Origin: Candidatus Latescibacterota bacterium
GTDB taxonomy: Bacteria > Latescibacterota > UBA2968
Direction of reading: 5' to 3'
Assembly (NCBI GenBank): GCA_965214925.1
Contig: OZ244028.1
Location: 3,863,009 to 3,927,008 of the forward strand
Length of the DNA stretch: 64,000 nt
Part shown: piece after piece, positions 48,070 through 51,526 of the stretch
Position numbering within the stretch: the first letter of the stretch is position 1
Layout: every line of letters begins with the position of its first letter
Made by a program: the position numbers and the translations under genes
The notes under the pieces: generated by a model
What the model saw: only the letters and a program-made list of their open reading frames with translations
The model's database searches: none
What the model was told of the DNA's origin: nothing

Positions 48070-48095
48070 TTTGACATTTCCATTGAGCCTTTTTG

Positions 48096-48434
48096 TTATC
48101 CCAAAAGAATATTTCGGCATTTCTCAATCAGATCGGGAAGATGATTTTTGATGATATCCCAGACGATTTCATTGTCGACAACACCGTAACCATGGGCAAT
48201 CACATTTCGGAAGTCAATTATGTCACGTAGATTTGAAATTTGTGTAGCAAGACTTGGATCATAACGAGAAATACGGTTTAAAGCTTCCCCAATAATCTCA
48301 AATTGACGCTCAATGGCAGACCGAATCAAAAGATCGCCAACATAATCTTCATAGGACCATCCAGATACAAATGTTTGTATGTTTTCGACTGCTGATATGA
48401 CATCATGCAGATAAGCGCGAGAATCATGCTGCAT
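48096..48434 (-). CDS. hepT: HepT-like (DUF86) ribonuclease toxin
   Basis: Rx4HxY motif RNVIAHGY. It overlaps the upstream MNT gene by 11 nt. Confidence 0.8.
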   Translation of the reverse strand: MQHDSRAYLHDVISAVENIQTFVSGWSYEDYVGDLLIRSAIERQFEIIGEALNRISRYDPSLATQISNLRDIIDFRNVIAHGYGVVDNEIVWDIIKNHLPDLIEKCRNILLG

Positions 48435-48726
48435 AAAGTGTTTTCCTGGTTGCCTTAGCGATTTGTTCTTTGATAAATGGATTTTGGATCTGATTTTCTT
48501 TGAGCAAATCTACCCTTCTCCCAAACAAGCTTTCCAACTCTCTTTTTAAGATCATAAAGCGTTTGAAGATATCCTCTGTGCTTTCAAACTCATAAAAAAA
48601 ATCGATATCGCTGGTCGCCGAATCAAAATCATCGCGCAATGAAGAGCCAAACACTTCCAAACGCTTGACTTCCAAACGCACACAGATTTCAGTTATTGCC
48701 TCGGTATAATGATCTAAATTTAGCAT
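48424..48726 (-). CDS. mntA: MNT-type nucleotidyltransferase antitoxin
   Basis: Minimal NTase motif FGSSLRDDF...SDIDF. Start at MLNLDHY with RBS AAGGAAAG. The track's longer N-terminal extension is unlikely. Confidence 0.8.
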   Translation of the reverse strand: MLNLDHYTEAITEICVRLEVKRLEVFGSSLRDDFDSATSDIDFFYEFESTEDIFKRFMILKRELESLFGRRVDLLKENQIQNPFIKEQIAKATRKTLYAA

Positions 48727-48876
48727 CTCATACTTTCCTTTTTTTGTCTGCGGAAATTTAATGCTTGCCCGCCCATGATAGCACACCGTGTGAAGAATCT
48801 GTTTTTTTTCGTATTCTCCAGGGCATCCTTTCAGGCTACATGTCATTTTGATCGGCCTCTTTGTGTGATCCATTTT

Positions 48877-49959
48877 TTATCCTCTTTGCCCACGCTGGCG
48901 CAAATAGTGATCCGCCAGGACAAGGGCTATCATGGCTTCGACAATGGGAACCGCGCGAGGTAGGACGCAGGGGTCGTGGCGACCGCGGCCTTTGAGGGTG
49001 GTGGGGTTGCCGTGGATATCGACGGTTTCTTGTTCGGGCAAAATCGTGGCGGTGGGTTTGAAGGCCGCGCGGATGACGATGGGTTCGCCGTTGGAGATGC
49101 CTCCCTGAATGCCGCCCGAATGATTCGTGCGCGTGTGAATGCTGCTGCCATCGTTGTAAAAGGGGTCGTTGTGTGCAGTGCCGGTCATGGCAGTGCCGCC
49201 AAAACCAGAACCGGACTCAAAGCCTTTGCACGCGGGCAAAGAGAGCATGGATTTGGCGAGGTCGGCTTCGAGTTTGTCAAAAATGGGTTCCCCCCAACCG
49301 GGGGGGACGCGATGGGCAATGGCTTCGACCACGCCGCCGAGAGAGTCCCCGTCTTTGCGCGCGGCATCGATGCGCCGAATGATTTGCTCGGCAATGTCGG
49401 GTTTGGGCACGCGGGCGATGTTCGACTCGACCTGTTCTCGGGTCACCGCGAGGGGGTCCACATTGGCAACGAGGGTGTGAACCTGGCGAACATACGCGAT
49501 AATGTTGATGTTGCAATCGCGTTTGAGCAATTTGCGCGCAACAGCACCTGCTGCAACGCGCCCGATTGTTTCGCGCGCACTGGCTCTGCCGCCGCCTTTC
49601 CAGTTGCGAATGCCGTATTTTTCCTGATAGGTATAGTCCGCGTGCGAGGGACGGTATTTGGTGCGTATTTCTTCATAGTCTTTGGCACGTGCATCCTTGT
49701 TCCACACCATCATCGAGATGGGCGTGCCCAGGGTGTGCCCTTCAAAGAGACCCGAATGGATTTCCACGCGGTCTTCTTCTTTGCGCTGCGTGGTGATTTT
49801 GCTCTGCCCCGGCCTGCGGCGGTCGAGTTCCACTTGGATGTCTGCTTCGCTGATCGCCAAACCGGGCGGGCATCCATCCAAGACAACGCCAACGCCGCCG
49901 CCGTGTGATTCTCCCCATGTGGTGATGCGAAATGCACGGCCATAAGTGCTGCTCATAAC
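48877..49959 (-). CDS. aroC: Chorismate synthase
   Basis: N-terminus [30 protein letters not shown] and the conserved RPGH/SARE motifs. Confidence 0.9.
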
Positions 49960-50055
49960 AAGCTCCTTTTTGCACAAAAAGTCCCGATTTTGGCCGATTT
50001 TTGTGCAAAGCCGACGAAAAATGTGATAGAGGATGCAGCAAGCACTGTTGAGCCA

Positions 50056-50702
50056 CTAGATGTTGTCGGCGTGAGGCCACACCCTCATCGCGGCCCGGCA
50101 GAGCCGTTTGGCGCGCGCTGCAATCGCCTCTTCGTCCCATATCTCTGGCGCATCGTCTATCAGGATCTTGTTGAGGAAAAGGACACTGTGCTCACCAAGC
50201 ACCGCCCGTTTGTCTTCCCATGCAGCGTTGGAGAGGGTTGGGTTGAGTCGATTGTTCACAAGGGTCAGATTGCCTATTGAGTGAATGAGGTTATCGCGGT
50301 TGCGCTCCCACTCTGTCTCCGTGTCGTCTTCAACTTCGGCGGGCGGTGCCCAGTATTGCCGCCACTGCTGAGGCATGATGTGCTCGATCGTCAGGTTGGG
50401 TGCACGCACGGACTGATATTCCGCTTTTTCCGTCCGCAACTCTTCCTCTATACCTTCAAGGACAATTCGCAGGCGTCCCTGCGTCAACAGCCTGTATAGG
50501 GGCTCGCTCCTGAAGGCTTGCTCCAGCTGTTGGTCGTCTGGCCACAGACGATATCTGGCCGTCTGGCCACTGAGATAGTTGATTATGGTATCACCGGCGT
50601 GGGTTGCACCTGATTCCAAATATATGGACGCTGAAACTGTGGAATCTCGTAGCGCACAGGCTGGGCGAAAAGCTTTTGCAAATTCAAAATGTTGACATCC
50701 AT
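50056..50702 (-). pseudogene. GmrSD-family (DUF262 + DUF1524) type IV restriction-like gene remnant
   Basis: Minus-strand ATG at 50702 (RBS AAGAGG) encodes MDVNILNLQKLFAQPVRYEIPQFQRPYIWNQ, the DUF262 hallmark, then stops. The track ORF 50056..50619 in another frame carries the DUF1524 His-Me finger motifs IEHIMPQ and NLTLVNNRLNPTLSN. Most of the DUF262 domain is missing. Confidence 0.55.
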
Positions 50703-51016
50703 ATTATTGCCTCTTTTTATTTTTAATAATGCGAATTAAGAGTTACGAGCAACTTTCCCCTCCTAGACGCCTGCTTTGACGCGCATCCGCATCCCTCGTC
50801 ATTGCGGCATGCTTAAAGCCGCAATCCCGTTGTCTTTTCGTCATGACTATCGGTGAGCCCACGGCATGCCGGATTTCAAAAATAGTTTTGACAAAAAAGT
50901 GTAGTTCAAGCAGATTGGATGTTGAATATTCCAATTGAGGTACCCGCAACGCGCGAGATGACACCATGATAATCGCAGACAAAATACTCAATCGCATCCC
51001 AATTTCCAAACCCCAA

Positions 51017-51526
51017 ATGAGAATCGCAACATATAAGTTGATACCCCCCATCCTCTTTTTGATTTTTCTGGCGTGTGTGCCCGAACCGCCCGAAGCCCCC
51101 GGCCGCGTGATGGAAAGACCTGAATTTGAACAGTTTGCGGTTCCCGAGTACCAAATTTACAAAGACAAACCGCGTCCCGTCAATCTCGTGAGCCATCCGC
51201 GCGCGATTCGATTTAAGGACCGCTTAATTCAAGGTGCTCAAATCGGGCCCAATTTTGCCGGGGATCAAACCATTGTGCGGTGGTTTTGCGGCGAGGAATG
51301 CCAGCAACTCGCGGTCATTGACGTGAGAATGGGCAGTGTGATCTTTGCCCCTTTTGTCACGCACTTGGGCTTTCGCTTTCGCCTAGACAGCAAACTCCTG
51401 ATCGTCAATCCACCCGAAGCCGTTGAACGGGCCGCCCGAGCAGGCAAATCCAAATCGCACTATCGCACGGCGTATTACGTCTGGCACTACGGCGAATTTG
51501 TCGAAATCTATGCGATTGAGAATTGA
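51017..51526 (+). CDS. Hypothetical lipoprotein
   Basis: Lipobox-like LFLIFLACVPEP after MRIATYKLIPPI. No known domain recognised. Confidence 0.5.
   Translation: MRIATYKLIPPILFLIFLACVPEPPEAPGRVMERPEFEQFAVPEYQIYKDKPRPVNLVSHPRAIRFKDRLIQGAQIGPNFAGDQTIVRWFCGEECQQLAVIDVRMGSVIFAPFVTHLGFRFRLDSKLLIVNPPEAVERAARAGKSKSHYRTAYYVWHYGEFVEIYAIEN

Follow-up and report, generated by a model that had tools for sequence, protein, structure and literature searches.

In the GmrSD family of type IV restriction enzymes, NTP hydrolysis is assigned to the DGQQR motif and DNA cleavage to the E/D-H-N-N signature of GmrD (PMC4619093). Single-chain members such as Eco94GmrSD carry PF03235 (DUF262) and PF07510 (DUF1524) together, and split GmrS and GmrD systems also exist (PMC4619093). 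BrxU, which is encoded in a BREX island and has a solved structure, shows the order DUF262, linker, DUF1524; in its DGQQR mutants Q101A and R102A, DNA cleavage and phage resistance are both abolished with the nuclease domain intact (PMC8565348). SspE (PDB 6JIV, 7DRS), a family member of about 770 aa that is linked to sspABCD, senses phosphorothioates and is an example of the other triggers found in the family.

The DNA analyzed here, referred to as the window, is a 64-kb stretch of a metagenome-assembled contig. Upstream of aroC it carries two short ORFs that overlap in different frames, which an earlier note had read as a decayed GmrSD gene at 50056-50760. The region is confirmed, with the correction that the gene lies on the minus strand. 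The two ORFs are read here as the remains of a GmrSD gene of about 600 residues that was killed by one out-of-frame internal deletion, with a probability of roughly 0.88. The features of the locus are collected in Table 1.

Table 1. Coordinates of the features of the gmrSD remnant and its surroundings in the window.
Feature	Position	Strand	Basis or remark
GAGG, Shine-Dalgarno-like	50710..50713	minus	7 nt 5' of the stub ATG; direct sequence reading
Stub ORF, 39 codons, ATG at 50702	50702..50583	minus	reads MDVNILNLQKLFAQPVRYEIPQFQRPYIWNQVQPTPVIP and stop
Ancestral GmrSD codons 1-31, MDVNILNLQKLFAQPVRYEIPQFQRPYIWNQ	50610..50702	minus	Pfam, PADLOC, tblastn, nucleotide identity, alignment
Deletion junction, 11 nt, TTGGAATCAGG	50609..50619	minus	overlap of the two tblastn matches at 50610-50616
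Eight out-of-frame codons VQPTPVIP + TAA	50583..50609	minus	C-site DNA in the wrong frame; closes the stub ORF
C-terminal remnant, 187 codons + stop, opens at TTG 50619	50056..50619	minus	Pfam, PADLOC, tblastn
Window-specific segment with the remnant, 1049 bp	49968..51016		blastn against syntenic relatives
HepT/MntA pair ORFs	48096..48434, 48424..48873	minus	Pfam

Comparison with described systems

Both ends of the remnant are homologous to and colinear with single-chain GmrSD proteins, and in the intact relatives of its clade the two Pfam domains follow each other in canonical order. The C-terminal domain of the remnant, a GmrSD_C His-Me domain, keeps the E/D-H...N...N signature. Unlike GmrSD enzymes, however, the window copy is without about 95% of GmrSD_N, without DGQQR and without most of the linker, and its pieces lie in different frames. 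Only 27 of the 199 GmrSD_N profile positions remain, and there is no other GmrSD_N-like sequence in the 64 kb. The two domains are found neither in one polypeptide nor in adjacent GmrS and GmrD genes, as the window holds no separate gmrS. A stand-alone GmrD would have its own start and an adjacent gmrS, whereas the DNA upstream of this nuclease ORF is the 5' end of the same fused gene. Judged by its colinear homology at both ends to relatives of about 600 aa, the remnant is a GmrSD member by descent that lacks the functional features by which the family is defined.

The PADLOC models Orf5 (PDLC02693), mREase_IV (PDLC03655) and HEC-06 (PDLC04154/04155/04157) are matched by the window pieces only at their termini. 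A literature search for the defense system behind the PADLOC name Orf5 found nothing. BrxU has its domain architecture in common with the ancestral gene, but the sequence relation is distant: BrxU is absent from the matches in searches of solved structures, and there are no BREX genes near the remnant. Likeness to SspE and to PDB 7DRI ("DUF1524 domain") is confined to the His-Me core, LTIEHI.PQ...GNL.L. Sequence searches against these structures gave E values of 1.7e-4 to 3e-3, and PADLOC SspE matches are at 1e-8 and weaker, far below those to Orf5, HEC-06 and mREase_IV. The relatives of the clade, at about 600 aa, are also shorter than SspE, and the neighbors of the remnant are aroC, a lipoprotein-like gene and frr, with no ssp genes.

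Two colinear pieces of one gene

When seven intact relatives were used as tblastn queries against the whole window, each of them produced exactly two matches, in colinear order on one strand. The N-terminal match takes query residues ~1-37 to 50717..50607 (E down to 7e-12, 72-74% identity with the best queries, L005 and L006), and the C-terminal match takes residues ~405-600 to 50616..50059 (E 1e-63 to 1e-72, 60-66% identity). Residues ~40-420 of the intact relatives have no tblastn match anywhere in the window. The other checks that the earlier note had proposed, profile searches for DUF262 and DUF1524 and a comparison of related-genome loci, agree with this picture: GmrSD_N is matched at positions 1-27 of 199 and GmrSD_C at positions 1-137 of 138, and the slot upstream of aroC is empty or holds other cargo in related genomes.

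The N-terminal piece is the short DUF262-like ORF with a preceding ribosome-binding site that the earlier note had described, and the GAGG upstream of its ATG is the translation-initiation region of the ancestral gene, still in place. Codons 1-31 encode the strand and helix with which DUF262 (GmrSD_N) begins and correspond to residues 1-31 of L006 in an alignment of 61 sequences. The Pfam match (E 1.1e-3) scores under the gathering cut-off because 27 positions remain. Against the PADLOC models the stub matches the extreme N-terminus (e.g. HEC-06 positions 9-39 of 569, E 1.7e-5), and at the DNA level it has 84-85% identity with the 5' ends of the related genes L084 and L085. No sigma-70-like promoter was found upstream of the stub on the minus strand, and a scan for promoters and terminators gave nothing exceeding shuffle expectation.

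The second ORF overlaps the stub ORF by 37 nt and lies in the -1 frame relative to it. It reads ...NLTIEHIMPQ...IGNLTLVNNRLN... and encodes ~25 residues from the end of the linker, followed by the whole of the DUF1524 (GmrSD_C) His-Me (HNH) nuclease domain, in line with the earlier assignment of the adjacent frame (Pfam GmrSD_C, E 2e-27, 96 bits where the cut-off is 23). With PADLOC models of ~550-630 positions, it matches the extreme C-terminus (Orf5 positions 397-542 of 543, E 7.9e-30). The His-Me signature residues E79-H80, N117 and N126 are invariant in the relatives and kept in the remnant, as are all 33 invariant columns of a separate alignment of 21 sequences. There is no Shine-Dalgarno-like motif before the TTG at 50619, the first in-frame start of this frame, and no ATG in the frame upstream of the catalytic EH. 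An AlphaFold2 model of the 187-aa ORF from the 21-sequence alignment has a mean pLDDT of 49, below use for a fold search.

The deletion and its junction

In the 61-protein alignment, the remnant covers residues 1-31 and 411-595 of the 595-aa L006, and ~379 codons (~1.14 kb) are gone. The missing part takes in almost all of the DUF262 NTPase domain and of the helical linker, with 95 columns of at least 90% conservation, including DGQQR and FETLNARG. The earlier statements that intact GmrSD proteins have roughly 600 aa and that most of DUF262 is missing here are thus borne out.

The junction reads (I)WNQ in the N-terminal frame and LESG in the C-terminal frame. On the N-terminal side, L084 is identical through ...TGGAATCAGG (Y-I-W-N-Q-E); on the C-terminal side, the relatives have L-E-E/K-A/S-G where the window encodes L-E-S-G. 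Because TTGGAATCAGG fits both frames, the breakpoint is placed no more finely than these 11 nt. A few bases of microhomology at the breakpoints are possible, and the junction is what a microhomology-mediated deletion would leave. In the search for a near-identical intact orthologue on which microhomology could be assessed, the best matches reached 66% identity in the GTDB scan and 55% in a JGI metagenome scan. Past the junction, the bases that close the stub ORF read GATHAGDTII in the C-terminal frame, homologous to the relatives.

The C-terminal frame lies one base upstream of the N-terminal frame, so one deletion with a length of 1 mod 3 covers both the loss and the change of frame. Most simply, then, both would have arisen in one event. 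The earlier note had proposed an internal deletion plus a frameshift; the deletion holds, but a separate frameshift mutation becomes unnecessary, since the single deletion suffices.

The history suggested by these comparisons begins with a single-chain GmrSD-family type IV restriction gene that would have been acquired horizontally and would have sat upstream of aroC in the same orientation. Its product of ~595 aa would have consisted of an N-terminal DUF262 ParB/Srx-like NTPase domain, a helical linker and a C-terminal DUF1524 His-Me nuclease domain. One internal deletion of ~1.14 kb (1 mod 3), with breakpoints within 50609-50619, probably then took codons ~32-410, and the DGQQR motif for NTP hydrolysis would have gone with nearly all of DUF262 and the linker. 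Codon 31 would thereby have met the final third of the gene in another frame. Translation from the original start now yields 39 codons, and the nuclease domain has no ribosome-binding site of its own. As for the earlier description of the locus as the remnant of a modified-DNA restriction enzyme, its GmrSD origin is supported by the colinear homology; that the ancestral gene carried out modification-dependent restriction is presumed from its family membership.

Intact relatives and broken copies

A scan of one genome per species (GTDB) yielded 80 loci; as it was seeded on C-terminal motifs, it is biased to copies that keep the C-terminus. The loci are mostly from Dehalococcoidia and other Chloroflexota, with further ones from Latescibacterota, Vicinamibacterales, Bryobacterales, Pseudomonadales and others. 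Sixty-one of them have one ORF of about 590-620 aa, with Y.IP.FQR at residues ~20-30, DGQQR at ~90-100 and IEH..P at ~490-500. Pfam analysis of three intact relatives places GmrSD_N at residues ~11-243 and GmrSD_C at ~436-583, with a linker of ~190 residues between them. L004 and L006, both intact, align with PADLOC Orf5 along its full length (positions 8-542 of 543, E 1e-92 to 1e-96) and have further matches to the mREase_IV and HEC-06 models. The nearest relatives of the remnant show 66-69% protein and 75-85% nucleotide identity.

An exhaustive HMMER search found many representatives of ~600 aa that match the query at their residues ~420-600. In a word-index protein search, all the proteins returned were 104-325 aa long and carried PF07510 alone, despite the abundance of such long relatives; its bias to short proteins is a matter of search method, not biology. 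The short proteins are pieces of full-length genes, broken by an IS3-type element (L001/L002), by DDE_Tnp_1_4 (L084) or by frameshifts (L003, L085, L086). A stand-alone DUF1524 family, first suggested by the short matches, was ruled out by the contig contexts and the abundant ~600-aa relatives.

Breakage is common in the clade: IS insertions, frameshifts and 5' truncations are seen among the 80 loci and the metagenome contigs. Further copies listed as broken are L011, L029, L037, L046, L048, L053, L056, L058 and L060. Some of the frameshifts in the clade come from long-read contigs of low coverage and may reflect sequencing errors. Other C-terminal remnants found in the C-terminal-seeded scan begin at residues 158-418 and have no N-terminal stub, and the arrangement of stub plus C-terminal domain was not found in another genome by the same scan. 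The frequent breakage by IS elements, frameshifts and truncations fits a rapid gain and loss of anti-phage genes.

State of the remnant and alternative explanations

At columns that are at least 90% conserved, the remnant deviates at 0 of 59, compared with a mean of 1.6 deviations in intact genes; at a threshold of 80%, it deviates at 1 of 72 columns, compared with a mean of 3.6. This absence of decay means either that the deletion is recent or that the nuclease domain is still under selection, and the perfect conservation of the nuclease domain taken by itself fits continued selection equally well. The second option implies that the remnant is alive: the 187-codon ORF would be translated, starting at TTG 50619 or coupled to the 39-codon stub as an overlapping leader ORF, into a stand-alone His-Me nuclease freed from its NTPase switch, which would be domesticated or would work with a DUF262 partner from another locus, on the model of split GmrS/GmrD systems. 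The ORF is uninterrupted with all of its invariant and near-invariant residues, it is listed as a protein by gene callers, the ancestral start region is still upstream of it, and the split systems provide a precedent (PMC4619093). A milder version is that the remnant is kept as a source of transcription, from its 5' region, for the essential aroC, whose native upstream region was replaced. However, a recent deletion accounts for the lack of decay equally well, and recency is favored because the TTG has no Shine-Dalgarno-like motif, no ATG precedes the catalytic EH, no DUF262 gene is found elsewhere in the window, the arrangement recurs in no other genome scanned, and the BrxU nuclease depends on a working DUF262 domain, as the DGQQR mutants show (PMC8565348). 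In addition, the short relatives are all fragments of broken full-length genes. A living nuclease, or its milder version, therefore appears unlikely, and the deletion is probably young. By the same BrxU mutants, which are inactive, the remnant has most likely lost its function as a restriction enzyme.

The remaining explanations question either the deletion or the gene. That the deletion is an assembly artifact or a minority allele, with an intact gmrSD at this place in the population, gains some credit from the source, a metagenome-assembled contig of 4.7 Mb, and from the frameshifts, possibly sequencing errors, in relatives from similar assemblies. A clean internal loss of ~1.14 kb with a unique junction is nevertheless atypical of consensus error, and there are no long flanking repeats that could collapse in assembly, which makes this explanation quite improbable. 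The earlier note had named full-length stand-alone homologs of the DUF1524 ORF, together with a chance resemblance of the upstream peptide to DUF262, as what would speak against a decayed gene, and the output of the word-index search looked like just such homologs. Those proteins, though, are pieces of disrupted ~600-aa genes, and the peptide is significant and colinear, with 72-74% identity to the exact N-terminus of L005 and L006 (E to 7e-12), in an adjacent position, in the same orientation and in the expected order, and with 84-85% nucleotide identity to the 5' ends of related genes. A genuine stand-alone gene beside a chance peptide is accordingly very hard to credit. Finally, no stop interrupts the C-terminal frame along the entire stub ORF, and the shift needed to enter it is -1, as would suit a programmed -1 ribosomal frameshift that produces a "mini-GmrSD" of ~218 aa from the 31-residue N-terminus and the nuclease domain. 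Yet a scan of the overlap found no X XXY YYZ slippery heptamer, the arrangement is found in no other genome scanned, and the product would still be without the NTPase core; this is the most far-fetched of the explanations.

With the killed GmrSD gene as the preferred reading, the locus is labeled a gmrSD pseudogene (internal out-of-frame deletion), and the two separately called ORFs of 39 and 187 aa are to be annotated together as that one pseudogene. It offers a clean and datable case of the loss of a defense gene, through a single frame-changing deletion at a hot spot that varies between strains and lies beside a housekeeping gene. As an instance of ordinary defense-gene decay, it adds a new decayed member to a well-known family and matters little beyond annotation.

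Genomic slot and neighbors

The chorismate synthase of the window clusters at 90% identity with proteins of which the named ones come from Gemmatimonadota MAGs. Syntenic relatives with 82-88% nucleotide identity share the order rpsI-rpsB-tsf-frr, a small opposite-strand lipoprotein-like gene, aroC and an AMP-binding enzyme gene. In blastn comparisons with them, homology stops on both sides of the remnant and resumes at 51017, in the lipoprotein-like gene, and at 49967, in aroC. The slot in between is empty in L095 (189 bp) and holds a PF00144 beta-lactamase-family gene in L087, a PF00144 gene with an IS605-type TnpB in L088, and TnpB in L092. By this comparison, the intergenic slot that separates aroC from the divergent lipoprotein-like gene is a hot spot whose content varies between strains. 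The slot spans 49957-51016 in the window, 4802-5000 in L095, 3874-5000 in L087 and 2489-5000 in L088. With the host taken as Gemmatimonadota, the variability of the slot and the position of the nearest relatives in other phyla indicate that the gene was acquired horizontally into this hot spot. The window-specific segment is not similar to the empty L095 intergenic region above the level of shuffles, and a search for terminal repeats and target-site duplications around it gave only short repeats at chance level.

A TTGACT-17-TACATT element lies upstream of aroC in L095 and L087 and is absent in the window, so that aroC is now 100 bp downstream of the co-oriented remnant. Where the window-specific segment ends, between the stop codon of the remnant and the start of aroC, there is a perfect 12-nt inverted repeat (49969-49980 and 49998-50009, TTTGCACAAAAA and TTTTTGTGCAAA, with a 17-nt spacer). 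Its stem is AT-rich, unlike a typical intrinsic terminator. On the other side of the slot, a 186-aa ORF (50966-51526, plus strand) has no Pfam match and has orthologues of 171-175 aa; its true start is probably the ATG at 51017, where homology with the relatives begins. The MRIATYKLIPPILFLIFLAC of this ORF resembles a lipoprotein signal.

A second insertion is seen on the far side of aroC. A toxin-antitoxin pair at 48073-48870 of the window consists of a HepT-like RNase (Pfam, 9.7e-23) and an MntA-like nucleotidyltransferase (7.8e-12). It lies between aroC and the AMP-binding enzyme gene; the syntenic relatives do not have it, and in them these two genes abut. The GC content of the pair is 37-40%, compared with 55-60% in the surrounding DNA.
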